Shown: one piece after another, positions 20,195 to 39,900 of the stretch
How positions within the stretch are numbered: position 1 is the first letter of the stretch
How the letters are laid out: each line of letters opens with the position of its first letter
DNA from: a phage
Sequence record: PZ445514.1
Strand: one strand, 5' to 3'
Length of the DNA stretch: 64,000 nt
Notes under the pieces: generated by a model
Told to the model about the DNA's origin: nothing
The model's input: the letters and a program-made list of their open reading frames with translations, nothing else
Databases searched by the model: none
Translations under genes and position numbers: made by a program

Positions 20195-20536
20195 CTACTC
20201 AAGGTCTTCAGAGTCAAGCTCAAAAAGAATCAAACTGTGCATGCCTGCAGATAGATTAACACACCCTGCAACAATAAGGGTCTGATAGTAAGGTTCAGCA
20301 CCCTCAATGTCTTCGTTAAAATCCACAACAAGGTAGTCACCTTTGTTAAAGGTGTATTTGTCCGATGTAAACGCAAAACCTGCCCAGTCCCCTACTGCAG
20401 GGTCTTTATCAGTCACCTTTGTTAACAGTAGATCTTTTTCACGGGATCTTTTAGTAAAATCGTGAATCACAACATCCTTCTCTTCAGGAGTTGGATTGCC
20501 ACACACGTAGTTAACTATATTTCTCCACAAACTCAT
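20195..20536 (-). CDS. hypothetical protein
   Basis: 113-aa ORF; ATGA overlap with helicase gene. Confidence 0.55.
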   Translation of the reverse strand: MSLWRNIVNYVCGNPTPEEKDVVIHDFTKRSREKDLLLTKVTDKDPAVGDWAGFAFTSDKYTFNKGDYLVVDFNEDIEGAEPYYQTLIVAGCVNLSAGMHSLILFELDSEDLE

Positions 20537-21903
20537 ACGTCCCCCTCTTCGGCTCTGGTTTCAAAATCTTTCCTGACAATTTTGTCTAAGTCAGGGAATG
20601 TTGTATTGTAAAACTCTACGACTCGCGGGTCAACAATAATGTCAACTTCTCTTAGTGGACGCAACAAGTTTATTCCTTGTATTGTCTTAACCCGACTCAA
20701 AGCAACATACGTCATCCCAGGAGAGAAAGCTCCGTTCTTTCCAAGGTCCAGGTTGTAACAATCTAGCGTAAGTCCTTGACTTTTATGAGATGTTACGGCA
20801 TACCCAGATTTCAGAGGAAGTTGCCTGTATGACCCAATCACTACCCTCTCTATAAACTTCTCCATCTTCCTTTCTGCAATGTTGTATCTCTGAGATGGCT
20901 TATACTCGTTATTTTCCCACAACCTCTGCTCTATGTCAACCTGTGTTCCATCTTCAAGCTCTACCACCACCGCCTTGTTCTTAAATTTAACAATTGTGGC
21001 ACGTGTTCCGTTAACATAATAAGGTACTTTGTGCGTCGGGTCAACATCGTTGGCGGTTATCATAACTTTCATGCCAATTTTCAACTTCATCTCCTGCTCA
21101 ACTGGCAGGGTGGAGGGAAACTTACCCTTCATTTCACCAGTGTATACCTTCTCTGGGGCGTTGATGGCATCATAGAACCTTCTGTTCACTTCCTCTGCTT
21201 GTTTGTTGGTGGCGCAAATTGTGAGAGCGTCTGTTGGTACACCGCCTTTGTAACAGCGAGCATTAAGTTCTGCTACAACCTCTTTTATGCGACGACCCTC
21301 ACGAACACAGTTGAGCATTGTGGCAAATCGAATAGACTCCTGTCGGAACTGGTCTATTAGGGCTATGTTGTGAAGGTCCAGCTCTTTCCAAGATTCGGTA
21401 TAGCAACATAGGTCTGTGTGGTAGAAGTTGAAGTAGGCCTCCTTCTCCATAGAAGAGACAACAGGAGGTGCCTGGTAAAAATCGCCAAACAATATGACCT
21501 GTATGCCTCCGAAAGGTTTGTCATTTTTTCGAAGGAAGCGGAGTTTCCTATCCATCTCTATAAACTTATCAGCACGGATCATAGAGATTTCATCGATAAT
21601 TAGGATGGTAAATGCCTTGCTTTTCAAAGGCTTTGCTGTTTTTGCCCTTATTGCAGTCCAGTCAGACTCCATGCTCACACCTGCTGCAAGATCGAAGGTT
21701 CGGTGTGCTGTTGCTCCATTAACGTTTAAAGCGGCTACCCCTGTCGGGGCAACCGTTATGCAAGAGTCTCCATACATTGACTGGATCATGTTGATGAGGT
21801 ACGTCTTCCCACAACCTGCGGGTCCTGAAACGAAGACATTCTCCCCACTCATGATTGCAACAAGGGCAGCATCTGTGCCTACATCATACTGCCCTTTTTC
21901 CAT
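20533..21903 (-). CDS. SF1 DNA helicase, Dda/RecD-like
   Basis: 456 aa; Walker A GPAGCGKT; C-terminal TSHKSQG and ALSRVK motifs typical of RecD/Dda helicases. Confidence 0.85.
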   Translation of the reverse strand: MEKGQYDVGTDAALVAIMSGENVFVSGPAGCGKTYLINMIQSMYGDSCITVAPTGVAALNVNGATAHRTFDLAAGVSMESDWTAIRAKTAKPLKSKAFTILIIDEISMIRADKFIEMDRKLRFLRKNDKPFGGIQVILFGDFYQAPPVVSSMEKEAYFNFYHTDLCCYTESWKELDLHNIALIDQFRQESIRFATMLNCVREGRRIKEVVAELNARCYKGGVPTDALTICATNKQAEEVNRRFYDAINAPEKVYTGEMKGKFPSTLPVEQEMKLKIGMKVMITANDVDPTHKVPYYVNGTRATIVKFKNKAVVVELEDGTQVDIEQRLWENNEYKPSQRYNIAERKMEKFIERVVIGSYRQLPLKSGYAVTSHKSQGLTLDCYNLDLGKNGAFSPGMTYVALSRVKTIQGINLLRPLREVDIIVDPRVVEFYNTTFPDLDKIVRKDFETRAEEGDV

Positions 21904-23108
21904 TACGCCTCCTCGTAAAGAATGTCGATAGTGTTACCGTCTCGGTCAACCACGTATTCAATCGGGTCTCCGTCCTTGCGTGCTTCCGGAGCTACCACAA
22001 TCTCATAGCGGCATGCACGGCACTTAGCGCTATTGTGTTGGTATGGCACACTAACCACATCTGCAGGGTCAACCATGACAGTCATTACAGTGCCGTAGCT
22101 CTTTGCATACTCCTTGCTGGCGCAGTGTAAGCCATAGGAGCACGCAGCTTCAGGATCATCCTCTACAAAGTTACGAGGCATGGATACAAAAGCACCCTGG
22201 TATTGTGGAACTTTACCACTGTGCCAATCCACCCACTTGCTGCCGTTAAACTGAACCCCTTTGTAGCAAATGATTCGACCATCTTCTGCAATCTGGATAT
22301 CGTTGGCCTGCATAAAATCGTAGAGCATGTTTACAGATTTTGCAGAAGGATTGCGTAGCAGGCGAACGAGGAATTTCACATAGCGGTCATCCAGTGTTCC
22401 GTCTGCATAGTCTTTCTCAATTTTCTTTGCAATGGTGGATCGCATCTCTACACCGTAGTAGTAGAGCTTACCATCTTTCATGATCAGGTTGTCTGCAAGT
22501 GTGGTGAACTCATTCTTGCGTTCCAGCCAGACAAGGATTTCACCAATTGCCTCATCATATTCCTGAACAGAGATATGGTCGAAGACTTTCTGGTAAACTT
22601 CCTCACTTTCGCTGCGGCGAATTTCAAAAATGCCTTCGTTGCAGGTGATCTGGAGGAGTTCCCCACAAATAACTACTAAAGGCTCGATGCTTCGAGTCTG
22701 TTGCTGAGACACACTGCTCACCACCTCCAGCACCGGGTCTTTGACTTCTACTAAAGGTTCTTCTGACTTGATTGCCACCCCAGTGAACCCCACACCGTGA
22801 ACAACACACAGTGGGTATACCACGCCCCAACGTTTAACGGAACCTTCGCCTAAGTCTAAGATCATGGCGTACTTACCATTATCTTCCAGCCCATATCGAA
22901 ATAGACGGGCCTCTTCACGGGTTTCAAAATCCTCACGGGTGTAGCAGACGCTGTCACGGTCAGGATCGAACAACTCTGGGGCACCAACTGCCAGTGTCCA
23001 GGTTGTGTCGCCTTTCTCAATGGCACATGTGAAACCCTTCTTCTCAAGTTCTGCACGGCGGTCGCGTGCTTCTTTACGAGTTTTGAAGTGTTCGTAGATG
23101 AAAATCAT
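21903..23108 (-). CDS. hypothetical protein, possible rIIB-like partner of GHKL ATPase
   Basis: Start set to ATG at 23108 after AAGGAGA; rIIB assignment is positional inference only. Confidence 0.55.
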   Translation of the reverse strand: MIFIYEHFKTRKEARDRRAELEKKGFTCAIEKGDTTWTLAVGAPELFDPDRDSVCYTREDFETREEARLFRYGLEDNGKYAMILDLGEGSVKRWGVVYPLCVVHGVGFTGVAIKSEEPLVEVKDPVLEVVSSVSQQQTRSIEPLVVICGELLQITCNEGIFEIRRSESEEVYQKVFDHISVQEYDEAIGEILVWLERKNEFTTLADNLIMKDGKLYYYGVEMRSTIAKKIEKDYADGTLDDRYVKFLVRLLRNPSAKSVNMLYDFMQANDIQIAEDGRIICYKGVQFNGSKWVDWHSGKVPQYQGAFVSMPRNFVEDDPEAACSYGLHCASKEYAKSYGTVMTVMVDPADVVSVPYQHNSAKCRACRYEIVVAPEARKDGDPIEYVVDRDGNTIDILYEEA

Positions 23109-23118
23109 AACTGTCTCC

Positions 23119-25101
23119 TTATTTGGTGTTATTCTTTGTATCAATCAGCTCACGGTATTCAATCATAGCAGGGGTGTCCCAATATTTCAAGCCTACATGC
23201 TTCAAAAGTGGGTATTTCTTTTCCAATCTCGCAATATAGGCCTTCCCGCATTTAACTCGGTTGGCGATTAAGATTTTGGCACGATGATTTAGCTCACTGT
23301 GCTTCCACGTGGTGTTACCTTCCCACTTGTGGAAATGTGGCCGATAATTTCCAAAATCTTGCATGGGAATAATTTTCCCTAATTGTCTATACAGGCTGTC
23401 ATAAGAAGTCTCATTTGCTGCACGGGTCAGTAAGAATTTCCAAGCATCCTCTTTCAACAGGTGCTCCACATTCTTCTCTGTAACATACTGGCAATCAGGA
23501 TCAGTCCAAAGCAGACGAGATTCAGATACCAGATACAGATCTTCACCTTCAGGAATCTGAAGTGCCGCACGTACACGGTCATAATCTTGCTGGTAGATGT
23601 TACTCATCTGCCCCAGCCAACAACTTCCACGTTGGATATCACCCTCATAAGGGATGCAGTGTTTAATCTTCCGGAACTCTGCCTTAGTAATACGCTCACG
23701 GCGGAAGTAACCATCCTTCTCAAGTTTTTTAACCCAATAGCCTGGCTCATAACGAGTTTTTGTTTCACCTTTCTTGACAGGTCGGCGAGGGAGCTCTGAT
23801 AACAATTTGACCGTATCTGCAAAGAACGGGTGGTGTGCCGCCTCTTTAAACTCTTTCACCAGATCAGTGTTCCGGCAATAGAAAACGTTGCGTCCGGTGA
23901 TCTCGCTTAAGTAGTTACACTTATTTCGGTTATATTTGCCGTCTCCGTCGTTAAATACTAAATAAACTCCCCGTAAGAATTCTACCTTTCCGTAACAAGC
24001 GTAACCTATGCGGCCTTTATTTAAGCCGCCAGCGAAGATCTCACAGTCCCCCAAATTTCCTAGGCCTGTCTCTTCCCATCGTTCCCACATAAAATTCTTA
24101 CCGAAGATGTGCCCGAACACTCCACTGTTCTTCATCATCTCGCGTGCTTCTGAGGATGTTTTTGCTGTCTCCAATTCCGCAACAACTTCTGCCCCACGTA
24201 GACGGATACCCTCTTTGACAAAAGCCTCCAGACGCTCTTGGAATCCACCATCGTCGTGACCCTCTATAGTCCATTCACGCCCTGGGTTAATATTGCAATC
24301 CCCGATAGGGATCTCTACACAGATTGCAGGGTAGTCTGTTAATGTCTCCAAGAACTTAGAACGGTAAGGTTGGTGACCCATTACCACGCGACTCTCGTCA
24401 GAGCTGGTATAGCCCTTTAGGATGGTCATTTTCCAACCATCTTTCTCGTAGTGATACTGCGCCTCAACCTTGTCACCTTCCAGCATCTTACTGGTCATAG
24501 GGTCGGTAACGGTAAACGGAAACTTTGCATAGCGTAGGCATGATGCAATAGCAGTGCGATATTTCAGAACATGCTCTTTCTTAACATGGAACTGAACTTT
24601 TACCCCATTGTGCTCTTCGGTCTTCCGCTCGCGGATCTTGGTAACGTTTGGGATACCTTGATCCAAGAACAATAGATATGTGCTTTCAACACCATTGTGC
24701 ACACTGATCACATCGAAAGTGTCCACCATGCTGAACGGAGCCTTCGAACCAACACCTTTATTACCTACCAGAGCGTTGCTGTTGCGCTTGGTTGACTCCC
24801 CGAGGTTCATGAAAGTGTTGCGGACCATCTCTTCTGACATGCCTAACCCAACGTCCTGCACAAAGAAGTACGGTTCAAGATCTGTAGGAGAGTGAATGAT
24901 GATCGGCACATCACCCCGTCCAGACTCAACATGGGAGTCCACAGCATTAAAGATTGGTTCACGGCAGCTTGCCAACACCTTATCTTCGTAAATCCCTTTA
25001 ATGATTAGCCCAAAAGTCTCTTTGTTCAGAGAAATTGAGCCCCTGGTGACCTCCATATTTCCAGTTAGCACCGCTTTAGTTTCATTACTGTTTACAATCA
25101 T
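23119..25101 (-). CDS. GHKL/Bergerat-fold ATPase domain protein, rIIA-like
   Basis: 660 aa; N-terminal DVGLGM and GNKGVGSKA match G1/G2 boxes of HATPase_c; AAGGAG upstream. Confidence 0.55.
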   Translation of the reverse strand: MIVNSNETKAVLTGNMEVTRGSISLNKETFGLIIKGIYEDKVLASCREPIFNAVDSHVESGRGDVPIIIHSPTDLEPYFFVQDVGLGMSEEMVRNTFMNLGESTKRNSNALVGNKGVGSKAPFSMVDTFDVISVHNGVESTYLLFLDQGIPNVTKIRERKTEEHNGVKVQFHVKKEHVLKYRTAIASCLRYAKFPFTVTDPMTSKMLEGDKVEAQYHYEKDGWKMTILKGYTSSDESRVVMGHQPYRSKFLETLTDYPAICVEIPIGDCNINPGREWTIEGHDDGGFQERLEAFVKEGIRLRGAEVVAELETAKTSSEAREMMKNSGVFGHIFGKNFMWERWEETGLGNLGDCEIFAGGLNKGRIGYACYGKVEFLRGVYLVFNDGDGKYNRNKCNYLSEITGRNVFYCRNTDLVKEFKEAAHHPFFADTVKLLSELPRRPVKKGETKTRYEPGYWVKKLEKDGYFRRERITKAEFRKIKHCIPYEGDIQRGSCWLGQMSNIYQQDYDRVRAALQIPEGEDLYLVSESRLLWTDPDCQYVTEKNVEHLLKEDAWKFLLTRAANETSYDSLYRQLGKIIPMQDFGNYRPHFHKWEGNTTWKHSELNHRAKILIANRVKCGKAYIARLEKKYPLLKHVGLKYWDTPAMIEYRELIDTKNNTK

Positions 25102-25598
25102 TTATTGCGCTCCTTGTAGTAGATATGACTCCCGAATTGAGCTGTCCTCTGCATCTTTTTTGCCCATTTCGGTCGTACTTTGGTTGTATGGTAGTGTGTT
25201 GCTCCACCTGTTATATCCATAGCCATGTATGCAACATGGTTGTTATTATAGACCTTTAGAAGCATCTTTGCAAGACTTTTAGCGTGATCCCATGAATCTT
25301 TTTCTGTCACCTTAAAAGTTTTGCCGTGGTTTGTCCACGAAAACTGGTTAGGTTGGTAGACAATCTTTCTTATAGTGTCTGGGTATTTGGGGTGAGATTT
25401 CCTGTTTAGTGTGGCAAACCCAGATGCCAGCATACCCATCGTGCCATCTCCTCTGGCCTCCCTGTAGATATTGCATGCCAGAATGTTTTCCTTAGTATCC
25501 GAGGGCTTGCAAGTATGATATACTTTTTGTTTTGGTGCTGCAACAACAGGCAGCGATAAAAATGCGCTCAAAATAATAGCAAAGATCTTAATTTTCAC
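25098..25598 (-). CDS. secreted cell-wall hydrolase, SleB-like
   Basis: 166 aa; GTG start after GGAG; signal peptide ending VVAAP; NIYREARG motif of SleB/Hydrolase_2 family. Confidence 0.65.
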   Translation of the reverse strand: MKIKIFAIILSAFLSLPVVAAPKQKVYHTCKPSDTKENILACNIYREARGDGTMGMLASGFATLNRKSHPKYPDTIRKIVYQPNQFSWTNHGKTFKVTEKDSWDHAKSLAKMLLKVYNNNHVAYMAMDITGGATHYHTTKVRPKWAKKMQRTAQFGSHIYYKERNK

Positions 25599-25611: not shown

Positions 25612-25635
25612 AGAAAATCCCCGCCGAAGCGGGGG
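25612..25635 (-). terminator. rho-independent terminator
   Basis: Minus strand CCCCCGC-TTCG-GCGGGG followed by ATTTTCTATTT; downstream of gene ending at 25647. Confidence 0.55.
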
Positions 25636-28814: not shown

Positions 28815-29714
28815 TCAAATCTCCGCGTAAATTAAACTGGAATCAGTATACTTCTTTAATGGGTAAATATCCTGTCCATAGATGCAGTCATTAAACACCT
28901 CATCTACCCAAAGGCTACACTTATATCCCATCATTTCTAAAACACCCATCTCTTCTTCGGTAAACTTATCACCGCTCTTGCAAGATGTCAATACCTCATT
29001 CTGTACTCTTGCTACCTCGAAGCGGTTATTGGCAATATCGCTATTGGCGATCAAATACTCACCTAAAGGGTGTGCGGCATTAAAGATGCACAGTGGGCGG
29101 TTGACGTAATAGTCTCCAGGTGTATAAAAATTATTGAGGTCTTTCACTAGAACATTCTTATCAGTCACTTCATTTATAACATCATGCATATCGCACATCT
29201 TTATATGTTTGAGGATTCCATCTCCCATCACAAAATAAAAACTTGCTGAGGCACTTTCGGCATAGATCTTACTAGATCCGTTGTAGTTGTATTTTACTCG
29301 GATGCTAACGGGGGTTTTTCCTGTCGCGTTAGCCATCATCCAAAGAAATGGCAGCTCATACTTCTCCTCTGAGGAAACAAAAGGTGAAGTAGCCAGAGAT
29401 CGAAAACCTCCAGAGAAGTTGAAAGTTACAGAACCGCTCCGGCGGTATGATACCGCGTATTCTACTTTTATATCGACATACCCGTTGGAATAGGTGTGTC
29501 CTTCATTATCTAAATATGTCCACTTATCAGACCCAGATACCAATCTACGCTCAATCACCTTCATCACTATAGGAATTAGTGGGTTGGTACAAACCGCTTT
29601 TGAAGTAGCTTTATCATCCAGAGCTTCGTAAATTGCAGAAAGGATATCTCCAGCTGAGAGATTGGTTGTTATATCCTGTTGCCACCTGGTGCTAAAACTG
29701 TTAAGATTTGCCAT
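28815..29714 (-). CDS. hypothetical protein, first gene of leftward operon
   Basis: 299-aa ORF with AGGAG upstream; divergent from plus-strand block. Confidence 0.6.
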   Translation of the reverse strand: MANLNSFSTRWQQDITTNLSAGDILSAIYEALDDKATSKAVCTNPLIPIVMKVIERRLVSGSDKWTYLDNEGHTYSNGYVDIKVEYAVSYRRSGSVTFNFSGGFRSLATSPFVSSEEKYELPFLWMMANATGKTPVSIRVKYNYNGSSKIYAESASASFYFVMGDGILKHIKMCDMHDVINEVTDKNVLVKDLNNFYTPGDYYVNRPLCIFNAAHPLGEYLIANSDIANNRFEVARVQNEVLTSCKSGDKFTEEEMGVLEMMGYKCSLWVDEVFNDCIYGQDIYPLKKYTDSSLIYAEI

Positions 29715-29793
29715 GAGTAAGTGCTCCTATGTTAGTTTTCTTTCGAATGGGTGCACTATATCGGAGATTTAGCGTAAAGTCAACACGTTTTTG

Positions 29794-36295: not shown

Positions 36296-36703
36296 ATGGA
36301 TAATCTTGCAAATGTGAACGTCGAAATTGTTAAACTAAAGTTTTTGGGATTTCGAGACCCTAATTCTTTAACAGCCATACTAATGGATACCCACTTCACG
36401 CCAGGGAAAGAGTACACCGCCTTCCGTTATATTTGTGGAGATCACGAATCAGCTTATAGTGTGAATACAAACCTCGGCGAGGGATATTTCATCAGAGATA
36501 TCACAGATCACTTATGGGGAATGTGGGAGTTGGTGGAAGAAGAGAATAAATCCCTTCCTAAAGAGATTTGGGTGCACACCTTCCACACAGGTAAGTTTGG
36601 AGGTACGGAACATAAGTCTATCCACTATGATGAAGAAAGTGCCATCAAACAACAAGCTGTGCTTGGTGGATCTGTAGAAAAATTTGTTAAATGCGAGGAC
36701 TGA
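36296..36703 (+). CDS. hypothetical protein
   Basis: Start set to ATG at 36296 after GGGGAGA; the ORF-track ATG at 36257 lies inside the predicted promoter. Confidence 0.55.
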   Translation: MDNLANVNVEIVKLKFLGFRDPNSLTAILMDTHFTPGKEYTAFRYICGDHESAYSVNTNLGEGYFIRDITDHLWGMWELVEEENKSLPKEIWVHTFHTGKFGGTEHKSIHYDEESAIKQQAVLGGSVEKFVKCED

Positions 36704-36706
36704 GAA

Positions 36707-36907
36707 ATGGCTGATTTTTGTAAAGATTGCTCTGAAGAGTTGTTTGGCTTTGACTGCAAAGATTTGGAAGGTCTGATCACTGAGGATCAGTGGAAGGAAG
36801 GCTATGCAGCACCTGTTATTTGTGAAGGTTGTGGCTATACCTATGTTGACCATAAAGGTAAGCGCGTCAAGCCGTCTGAAGATGGGGCATGTTGGGAGTA
36901 TTACTAA
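36707..36907 (+). CDS. putative zinc-ribbon protein
   Basis: 66 aa; CxxC pairs (CKDC, CEGC); GAGGA upstream; followed by strong terminator. Confidence 0.55.
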   Translation: MADFCKDCSEELFGFDCKDLEGLITEDQWKEGYAAPVICEGCGYTYVDHKGKRVKPSEDGACWEYY

Positions 36908-36912
36908 CTATA

Positions 36913-36946
36913 AAAAGAAAGGGGCCAAACGGCCCCTTTTTTATTT
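36913..36946. terminator. bidirectional rho-independent terminator between convergent operons
   Basis: GGGGCC-AAAC-GGCCCC flanked by AAAAAGAAA and TTTTTTATTT, between plus gene ending 36907 and minus gene ending 36956. Confidence 0.65.
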
Positions 36947-36955
36947 ACCCCCTTG

Positions 36956-39900
36956 TTAACGAGAAAAGGTTGCGTAGGCTTCTAGACGATACTGCTGGTC
37001 ACCAGGGAACATAACACCTATAGAGGCTGTCCCTAGAATCCTGCCTTCCTTTCCAGACTCCATTCTGAACCCTACCCATCCTGAACTCCTTGCAGCCTCG
37101 ATGTTGTCGCTATACCCGAAAGTGGCAAGATCGTCAACACCAGCCCCAAACAGCAACTGAAGCTGACTTCTAGGAAGCCCTATAATTTCAGGAATATACG
37201 CACCAAAGTACACCATCTGCCCTACCTTAGGACCGCTGCCGTACTCCATCGGTTTGCTTGTAGAGAAAGTCTTCATACCAGAAGTACCTGCCGGATTAGG
37301 GTATGCCCCGTTTGTTGCTGTACCTATCCACATTCTCCACTGTGGTGCCATCTGTTTGACAGTAAAAGATGTTGAAGACGTTTTGCGCCCTGCATCATCA
37401 GTAACTACAAACTTTATGGTGACATTCCCAGTAGCTTTAAATGTTACCAGCCCTGTGGCAGCATCCACTGTTGCAATGTTGGTATTACTACTTTCCCAAG
37501 TCTTTCTAATACCGGATACGTTGGAAGGGGTAATAGAAGGTTCCTGCATCTGCAGTTTACCACCCACAATCCCTATGCCGTTACCTGGGTTATACAACAC
37601 ACCAACTTCATCTATAATGTTACCTGCTTTGAGACTATACTTCCTTGAAAAGTTGTAGGTTCCGTTATAAGAGTGTGTCCCTGAGAAGGTGACATCTGCC
37701 TTCCCGTAAGATATGCAAACCAAAGCATACTTCCTGTCAGGCAACGTTTCCCCAGTCTCTGGGTGAGTTTTACCCACCTGGAACACACTCGGGTCAGTAG
37801 AGTCGTAACTATCGCTAATGGAGCTTGGACCGCCCATCAACTGTGACAAACAATTCCTTACCCATGTCCAGTTATTATCACTGGAGAAGTCCACAGTCAA
37901 ATCAAACACAACCCACTCATTCGGCTTCCACACAGGTGTTGCAATGGACTTGCCTACACCGCCTCCTTGGAGTGTTGCCGACTGTTCGGTGATCAGTGCC
38001 GCATAGGCCAGAGTTCCTAAACTCAGAGTCTGGCTTGCTGTCCTCACTACCTTAGAATCAGCATCTGTGAAGTTGTTGATGATTTGGAATGTACCATAAG
38101 TGTTTTTACAGGTAATTCTGGCGTTCAGTGTGTCAATCTTCCTCACATCTGCCATAGCAGTGTTAGACACAGAGAAGTCAGAAGCTTTAGCTGAGTTTGC
38201 CGCAACAGCAGGATCAACGTTAAGAGTTGCGTTGAACTGGCAAGCAGGGGTAACCAGCAGCTTGTTATCACCTATTTGCTTCCATGAAACACTTTGAACA
38301 GGAAGATTCCATTTAATACCTGAGAAAACTTTAGCAACCCTCGGCCCCAGAGCTCCAGTCCTGTTGTCTTTACAACACATAGACATGGTGATCGTTGACG
38401 GAGTGGCCTGACCAAATAATTGCTGTGCTTTTGCAGAGGACATGGTGTAGAAATTGTCCTTAACAAACTCATCAGCGGCTAAAGATCCATCAGCCCTCCA
38501 CCACTGGACCTGATACCCTGTTTTATCCCAACCACCGACCTGCTTCAAGTCCTCCCAGGAGATTTCTAGATCCCCGGTGGTAGGGTTGATTGCAGCAGTT
38601 CCTGGTGTTCCAGGTGACCACAATGGAATATCGAACCACGCTGGTTTAACAGACTGCACTGCGCTAGGGCCTATTGCGGCAGCAAGTTGCTGGCCCATCA
38701 ATACACGAGCATCTTTCACCAGACCCCACTCGATCATGGACCCAGAGTAACCTTCTTTCTTGTAGGCTGAGGATCCGTTCAAGTGGATAAGTCGGCTTGT
38801 GCCAAAGTTATATGCCCCGCCACCGTTATCATCTGCAAAATTGTATATGATTCTATCCCTAATATCCTTCCATGCCCTGCCGCCGATCTCGTAGTCATGG
38901 TCATAGCATCTTTGCAGCGTTGTCCAGCAAATGATCGCCATCCTTCTGCCGTCACTAAAGCCAAAGGCCTGATCGTTAAGCTCTCTCCACAAGTAGCAGT
39001 TAGTGGTCCACATAGCTCTGTGAATGTTGAACCAATTTATAGACCTGGCTGCATTGTTGTAGGCGGTGCCTTCTAGCGTAGGCCACACTGCATTAACCAG
39101 CATGTCCTCTGTCCCTGCGTCTATCAGGAATCCTCTCACTTTCTTACCCATTCCTACTCTATCCTTGGCAATCCATGAGCCGAACAATTTCAGTTTAGGA
39201 CCGATTACGGCATCCTCTGGATGCTCAAGAGAGACATACTTCAAGTATACTGTAGGATCACCGTAGGTGCCATCACAAACAGCTTTGTGCATGTTTTCAC
39301 CAAGGTCCAGACGGATACCTGTGAGAGTTTTGGTATCATCTGTGAACTTATCTGTCAAATCAAACTCGTACCACCACCACCCGGCTCCAAGTAAAACTTT
39401 CTTACAGCGTTTAGCGTCTGTGTCGGAGATTCTTTTATCCCCTGCATATGGCGAGTCTGCAAACTGGTAGTGCAGAGCAACTTCAAAAGGATGTGTGGAT
39501 GTCCCGTTTTCTGCAAGAACTTGCTTCCCGATCAGATCGCATTTAATAATCATCACGACACGTTTGTATCCATTGGCAACTGGAACGTCGAACGGATACC
39601 TCGCACCATCCATATTCGCATGCAAAGCTGCGAAATTTATGTATGGGTCAACAGCGTTACCTAAAGTTTCAGGCCCTGGGATCATCTTGTACTTCTTGAC
39701 CTGTCCCATGATATAGTCGCTGCCGTAGGTTGCAGCCTCGAAGCAAGAACCGCTGTCAGGCAGTTCAGCAGGACCCCAAAAGTATGCTCCGTAACAATTA
39801 TAGAACCATTTGTTAGGGTCATAGTTATTCTTGAAGGTCTGAACCTCGTTTGCCTGTTTCAACAAGAAAACCTGCGTATCTGTGAAGATTGCAGGGTTTA

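Follow-up and report, generated by a model that had tools for sequence, protein, structure and literature searches.

We identified an rIIA/rIIB gene pair in a 64,000-nucleotide (nt) stretch of phage DNA (sequence record PZ445514.1, referred to at its full length as the window), which is that of a Vequintavirus, an rV5-like myovirus of Escherichia coli. The first-pass annotation of this DNA, made from the letters alone, had described a 660-amino-acid (aa) ATPase resembling T4 RIIA together with a coupled 401-aa gene in the rIIB position. Both open reading frames (ORFs) are present where they had been placed, between positions 21903 and 25101, and both lie on the minus strand, which had been left unstated. 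The pair and the ribosome-binding sequence between its members are as follows:

23119..25101, minus strand: rIIA gene, 660 aa, stop codon included (ORF; match to phrog_612; identity to named rIIA records)
21903..23108, minus strand: rIIB gene, 401 aa from its ATG, stop codon included (ORF; match to phrog_609; identity to rV5 ORF238)
23115..23120, minus strand: Shine-Dalgarno sequence AAGGAG for rIIB (read from the sequence), overlapping the rIIA stop codon as TAAGGAG

The rIIA gene lies directly 5' of rIIB on the same strand, an arrangement kept in all Vequintavirus records examined, and the two genes are separated by 10 nt, with the rIIB ATG located 6 nt beyond the AAGGAG. This short gap and the overlap of the stop codon with the ribosome-binding sequence bear out the earlier description of the two genes as coupled. 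An alternative in-frame TTG at 23144, 5' of the rIIB ATG, would yield a protein of 413 aa; the ATG is the start used in public records. Gene order and strand are those of T4 rIIA and rIIB (Benzer's rII locus), where the gap measures 11 nt.

The 660-aa protein was identified as RIIA by both profile and pairwise comparison. Residues 1-657 align with positions 1-723 of the 725-position profile phrog_612 (RIIA) at E=5e-124, and T4 RIIA matches the same profile in the same library (E=9e-250). BLASTP aligns residues 1-190 with T4 RIIA at 28% identity (E=3e-21), and hhalign of the RIIA family profile against T4 RIIA covers residues 1-306 with 99.9% probability (E=6e-37), extending about 100 residues past the ATPase domain. 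The pairwise alignments with T4 (BLASTP and hhalign) end near residue 300, while the phrog_612 alignment spans the remaining region, residues ~310-660. Since the C-terminal domain of RIIA has been described as highly variable (Iyer et al. 2021, PMC7824862), a C-terminal half that lacks a pairwise alignment with T4 is consistent with this description. The likeness to T4 RIIA proposed from the letters alone is thus upheld by a full-length phrog_612 match and by hhalign.

The N-terminal part of RIIA carries the ATP-binding motifs of the GHKL superfamily. The positions called invariant below, and for the further RIIA motif described later, are those of an alignment of 29 homologs with identity down to ~20%:

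24502..25026, minus strand: N-terminal GHKL (Bergerat-fold) ATPase domain, ~residues 26-200 (Pfam HATPase_c_3, 35 bits against a cut-off of 25)
24937..24960, minus strand: Bergerat motif I or N-box, E48-P-I-F-N52-A-V-D55 (alignment of the homologs)
24838..24855, minus strand: G1 box (DxGxG), D83-V-G-L-G-M88, with D83, G85 and G87 invariant
24739..24765, minus strand: G2 box (GxxGxG), G113-N-K-G-V-G-S-K-A121, with G113, G116, G118, S119 and K120 invariant

In the N-box, R47, E48, N52, A53 and D55 are invariant. The two boxes on which the original ATPase call had been based, DVGLGM (residues 83-88) and GNKGVGSKA (residues 113-121), are therefore both found, with their key residues conserved throughout the alignment. 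These Bergerat motifs are common to T4 RIIA and the RIIA described here. No hydrophobic segment was found in RIIA, where the maximum Kyte-Doolittle average over 19 residues is 0.93, and neither RIIA nor RIIB contains a conserved transmembrane segment. Searches of NCBIfam and PADLOC returned for RIIA only sub-threshold matches to GHKL-type proteins (sacsin, HSP90 family protein, BbrUII, and TmtA) and for RIIB zero matches. Judged by the profiles of these two collections, the rII pair is unlike known defence-system proteins.

The partner, whose identity the first-pass annotation had left unproven, is RIIB. Its residues 132-375 match phrog_609 (RIIB) at E=1e-61, a profile also matched by T4 RIIB in the same library (E=7e-111), so that the two pairs fall within the same PHROGs; the E-values of the phrog_612 and phrog_609 matches (5e-124 and 1e-61) are far past chance. 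BLASTP aligns the protein with T4 RIIB at 37% identity over 204 columns (E=4e-39), and hhalign delimits a core that is common to both:

21990..22658, minus strand: RIIB core common to T4 RIIB, residues 151-373 (hhalign of residues 145-368 against T4 residues 87-306, 99.9%, E=1e-33)

Invariant columns are dense at residues 213-367 and include the motifs NPSxKxV, MPRNxVEDxP, GLH, VDPADxVSVPY, and KCRxCR. Moreover, when an AlphaFold2 model of RIIB was searched against the viral structure library BFVD, 31 of 31 significant matches were RIIB proteins. The precomputed Pfam family PF26926, which is absent from our local Pfam copy, is assigned to all RIIB homologs. No solved relative of RIIB was found by sequence or by fold, the best Foldseek match (E=0.3, homing endonucleases) being noise. 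An absence of profile similarity to rIIA and rIIB beyond the generic HATPase_c fold had been named beforehand as the result that would speak against an rII assignment. Such similarity is present for both proteins, which supports the original interpretation.

Outside the shared core, the N-terminus of RIIB is distinct from that of T4 and consists of two predicted modules that are joined to the core by a linker:

22803..23102, minus strand: paired beta-alpha-beta-beta modules, residues 3-42 and 54-102 (AlphaFold2 secondary structure)
22686..22802, minus strand: poorly conserved, predicted disordered linker, residues 103-141 (predicted local distance difference test, pLDDT, below 50 over residues 101-141; length and sequence vary in the alignment)

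The two modules form an internal repeat (EHFKTRKEARDRRAELEKKG / EDFETREEARLFRYGLEDNG) with a local score of 44, against 20.4±4.2 in shuffled sequences, a score reached by 1 of 2000 shuffles, and share the motif F-x-[ST]-R-x-E-A-R. They are kept across the Vequintavirus-related clade in our alignment. An exhaustive search with the N-terminal 105 aa recovered only 4 matches in 1.84 billion representatives, two of which were marginal repeat proteins; on this evidence, the module pair is almost confined to RIIB of the Vequintavirus type. The N-terminus of T4 RIIB is instead a helix-turn-helix (HTH; Pfam HTH_7/HTH_28 and the DNA-binding domain profile phrog_867), for which this RIIB gave no Pfam match. 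Among the BFVD matches, RIIB proteins range in length from 147 to 644 aa and their N-termini vary widely, so the missing HTH has no bearing on membership in the RIIB family. A SPOR domain (PF05036) was considered for this N-terminus and rejected, as the match scored 19.3 bits against a cut-off of 21 and was found, among 27 homologs, in this sequence alone; the Foldseek match to the SPOR domain of CwlC (E=0.78) is a resemblance at the level of fold only.

The pair was already known. RIIB is 100% identical to the 'rIIB protector' ORF238 of phage rV5 (DQ832317 / NC_011041), while the 'rIIA lysis inhibitor' of rV5_ev147 (LR597647) is a 100% match to RIIA, which is 97% identical to rV5 ORF1, 'rIIA', such that public records have carried the names rIIA and rIIB for these exact genes from the deposition of the rV5 genome onwards. 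Among phage records, 86 matches cover the rII region over nearly its full length at 90-98% nucleotide identity, and homologs of each protein occur in ~2,650-2,880 phage records, mostly labelled rIIA or rIIB. The rV5 and rV5_ev147 genomes share the neighbours found here (SleB, MoxR ATPase, helicase, and methyltransferase). As is customary for T4, the rV5 record starts and ends between the two rII genes, which places rIIA and rIIB at its opposite ends. The labels attached to the pair vary among near-identical phages and include 'rIIA/rIIB lysis inhibitor', 'membrane integrity protector', 'putative DNA-binding rIIA protein', and 'ATP-binding protein / SPOR domain-containing protein', as well as 'hypothetical protein' in EdH4 (where the GenBank record gives this name to both genes), phiWec189, Gotham, and the O157 typing phages.

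Two further observations concern these relatives. The rIIA DNA is ~92% identical to reference rV5 and 100% identical to rV5_ev147/ev156, whereas the RIIB amino acid sequence is 100% identical to that of rV5; this mosaic of identities, as read from sequence comparison, suggests a breakpoint of recombination close to where rIIA and rIIB meet. In addition, 16-17 unannotated records labelled 'Campylobacter phage' (MG0656xx, host C. jejuni) are 94-97% identical to positions 1-25101 of the window, which suggests mislabelled hosts or contaminated preparations.

Natural single-chain fusions of RIIA and RIIB also exist, as in RB43 (Q56C47, 1049 aa). In the RB43-type protein the RIIA module precedes the RIIB module, from N to C, as the genes do here, and the layout of the phrog_609 profile agrees with this. 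The difference is that RB43 encodes a single chain, whereas here a stop codon and a ribosome-binding site stand between two polypeptides. Such fusions explain why the N-terminus of RIIA also matches phrog_609, a profile of 1055 positions.

Two further proteins with rII segments were observed as well. In the metagenomic protein P0072 (330 aa; 7 member sequences, 38.7-kb contig), the RIIB core follows immediately on an RIIA-like N-terminus; it may represent a natural rIIA-rIIB deletion fusion resembling T4 r1589, or an artefact of assembly or gene calling. In P0005 (498 aa, 3.3-kb contig), probably an assembly chimera, TPR repeats accompany a segment that matches this RIIB at 99% identity over 55% of the query.

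In T4, rIIA and rIIB counter RexAB, an abortive-infection system acting through membrane depolarisation, and thereby allow the phage to grow on lambda lysogens (PMC8594841; HIDEN-SEQ; PMC9391042). Both genes were found to be conditionally essential when RexAB was present, in HIDEN-SEQ transposon screens as well as by deletion and complementation (PMC9391042). More recently, RIIA or RIIB was knocked down by CRISPRi-ART in phages T4, MM02, EdH4, SUSP1, and N4 (Adler et al. 2025, PMC11879866); in that article, which terms the rII module 'widespread yet poorly understood', the knockdowns left infection of Rex-minus hosts unaffected and lowered plating on hosts carrying lambda RexAB. EdH4 (Vequintavirus murica) has the same gene order as the phage described here and differs from it by 15 aa in RIIA (645/660 identical) and 10 aa in RIIB (391/401 identical); both proteins share 98% aa identity with those of EdH4, and the rII DNA is 92.8% identical. 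Taken together with the knockdown data, this identity means that the conditional counter-defence role has been tested in near-identical orthologs, and the link between rII-type pairs and escape from abortive infection, which the first-pass annotation had suggested, finds published support in the RexAB results for EdH4.

We consider it very likely that the pair is an rIIA/rIIB module with an accessory role in counter-defence: not needed on naive hosts, it would block abortive infection of the RexAB type, in which the infected cell is killed by depolarisation of its membrane. Under this reading, RIIA and RIIB would be translated in succession from one mRNA, RIIA would hydrolyse ATP, and the two proteins would act as one physical unit, presumably a complex, that keeps abortive-infection effectors which depolarise the membrane from being activated or from having their effect. 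That RIIA and RIIB occur naturally as a single chain speaks for their working as one unit. The literature that we found gives no molecular mechanism for rII. Membrane association has been reported for the T4 rII proteins; given the lack of a conserved transmembrane segment in RIIA and RIIB, any such association here would be peripheral.

Several points weigh against the counter-defence reading. Neither protein has a conserved transmembrane segment, which gives no confirmation of the membrane association reported for the T4 proteins. Alignment with T4, whether pairwise or by profile, covers no more than ~300 N-terminal residues of RIIA and ~230 C-terminal residues of RIIB, and both the C-terminal half of RIIA and the N-terminus of RIIB differ from their T4 counterparts. 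The functional data, moreover, come from the EdH4 orthologs and would apply to this phage by analogy, and the text of Adler et al. (PMC11879866) gives the RexAB result jointly for the five phages. RexAB is itself derived from lambda and restricts only 2-3 of the ~70 BASEL phages (PMC8594841), so that other systems may be what the Vequintavirus module naturally targets. Lastly, possession of RIIB may be a disadvantage: RIIB of phage T6 suffices to trigger a CARD-gasdermin defence of Lysobacter and is toxic when expressed alone (PMC10312443).

The genes flanking the pair belong to the same gene string and differ from those in T4, where the flanks are rIIA.1/gp60 and denB.1:

25098..25598, minus strand: SleB-like cell-wall hydrolase gene, upstream of rIIA (Pfam Hydrolase_2, E=2e-19)
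20533..21903, minus strand: Dda/Pif1-like helicase gene, downstream of rIIB (Pfam PIF1, E=1e-32; phrog_325, Dda-like helicase, E=8.5e-112)

As read from the sequence, the end of the SleB-like gene overlaps the rIIA start as ATGA, indicative of translational coupling, and the helicase start overlaps the rIIB stop codon as TAATG. The SleB-like protein begins with a hydrophobic segment resembling a signal peptide. A strong terminator-like hairpin (CCCCGCTTCGGCGGGG) followed by a run of T at 25619-25634 precedes the SleB-like gene and looks like the only real terminator in our scan, in which the counts of promoters and terminators were not above those in shuffled sequence; no convincing sigma-70 promoter was found between this hairpin and the SleB-like gene. 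At the scale of the window, minus-strand genes extend up to 29714, small early genes occupy the plus strand from 29791 to ~36703, and tail-fibre genes on the minus strand begin at 36956. GC skew changes sign at the same points as the direction of transcription (29714-29791 and about 36700-36956). No tRNA genes were found in the 64 kb, nor did any Rfam family reach its gathering threshold.

The neighbouring hydrolase bears on an alternative in which the pair is chiefly a lysis-timing module and sets, together with the adjacent secreted SleB-like enzyme, the time at which the envelope fails. Both proteins are named 'lysis inhibitor' in PHROG and RefSeq, the SleB-like gene is coupled directly 5' of rIIA in an arrangement that is conserved in Vequintaviruses, and the weak SPOR (peptidoglycan-binding) match at the RIIB N-terminus has its counterpart in one PGAP record, where the ortholog is called a 'SPOR domain-containing protein'. 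That match, however, is under the Pfam cut-off and is found in only 1 of 27 homologs, as noted above, and RIIB has no signal peptide, such that it would not reach the peptidoglycan. The rapid-lysis phenotype of T4 rII mutants, moreover, is reportedly dependent on host and prophage (a result said to come from Paddison et al. in 1998). Lysis timing is also difficult to reconcile with the knockdown data, in which silencing either gene in the five phages, EdH4 among them, had no effect on infection of Rex-minus hosts (PMC11879866). We therefore regard lysis timing as an improbable primary role for the pair.

Still less probable, in our estimation, is that RIIB is a transcription factor and that the pair tunes phage transcription to host physiology. 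RIIB orthologs have been listed among specific transcription factors (Iyer et al. 2021, PMC7824862), and the N-terminal HTH of T4 RIIB is in keeping with that listing. The RIIB described here, however, has two beta-alpha-beta-beta modules in place of an HTH, and the region in common with T4 RIIB is its C-terminal core; to bind DNA by means of an HTH is thus not the conserved function of RIIB. Finally, a generic GHKL ATPase (topoisomerase- or MutL-like) beside an unrelated protein, with only a superficial likeness to rII, is what Pfam alone might suggest, as it gives HATPase_c_3 for the ATPase and zero matches above cut-off for its partner, but this is ruled out by the full-length PHROG match of RIIA, the strong match of RIIB, the BLASTP and hhalign alignments of both with the T4 proteins, and the thousands of phage homologs of each that are mostly labelled rIIA or rIIB.

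By both structure and profile comparison, the solved proteins closest to RIIA are all Hsp90 chaperones. In a Foldseek search of the RIIA structure model (pLDDT 82.6) against the PDB, the best 50 matches were all members of the Hsp90 family (TRAP1, Hsp90, Hsc82, GRP94, and HtpG), with E-values down to 7e-16 over 500-750 aligned columns and low template modelling scores (TM-scores, 0.31-0.44). The RIIA family profile, searched against PDB sequences, produced 68 matches at E<=0.01; all 60 that were listed belong to the Hsp90 family, and none of these 60 was a MutL, GyrB, MORC, or histidine kinase. By hhalign, RIIA matches residues 15-210 of E. coli HtpG, the N-domain, with 95.8% probability (E=7e-9), and T4 RIIA taken by itself has Hsp90 as its sole match, weakly. 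Among the GHKL clades, Hsp90 is accordingly the one nearest to the N-domain of RIIA, with the significance of this relationship at the sequence level being confined to the N-terminal domain.

A possible further correspondence lies beyond that domain:

24274..24282, minus strand: [GS]-R-E motif, G274-R275-E276, with R275 and E276 invariant; candidate counterpart of the catalytic-loop arginine in the Hsp90 middle domain

The motif reads GREW in this RIIA and APSREAL in T4, to which it is common along with the Bergerat motifs. When RIIA residues 200-660 were compared with HtpG residues 215-624 by hhalign, the single best local alignment placed R275 on R336 of HtpG ('NVSREILQ'), which we take to be the catalytic-loop arginine of Hsp90. 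This alignment is marginal (score 23.7, P about 0.02-0.03, with 0.029 as the point value, and a score as high reached by 2 of 120 shuffles), and the equivalence of R275 with the catalytic arginine is suggestive only. We know of no RIIA with chaperone activity, and the literature that we searched contains no paper tying rIIA to Hsp90. The Hsp90-like character of RIIA is therefore a lead and not a family assignment.

As a tentative hypothesis, which we regard as possible though unlikely, RIIA may be a diverged phage GHKL ATPase of the Hsp90 lineage that forms, with RIIB, an ATP-driven clamp or chaperone-like machine inactivating a host or prophage protein. The ATPase N-domain would then be followed by a middle domain supplying R275, and the target held by the clamp might be, for example, the Rex sensor or channel or another membrane-depolarising effector. 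The RIIB core would serve as partner or adaptor, and the RIIB N-terminus would be a swappable targeting module, represented by the HTH in T4 and by the beta-alpha-beta-beta modules in Vequintaviruses.

The practical value of these results lies in annotation, as many sister records still carry the names 'hypothetical protein' or 'ATP-binding protein / SPOR domain-containing protein'. The content that is potentially new, namely an Hsp90-like RIIA with a candidate catalytic arginine and an exchange of the RIIB N-terminus, could guide experiments on rII. If true, the clamp hypothesis would supply a concrete and testable biochemical model for the rII problem, which is 70 years old.

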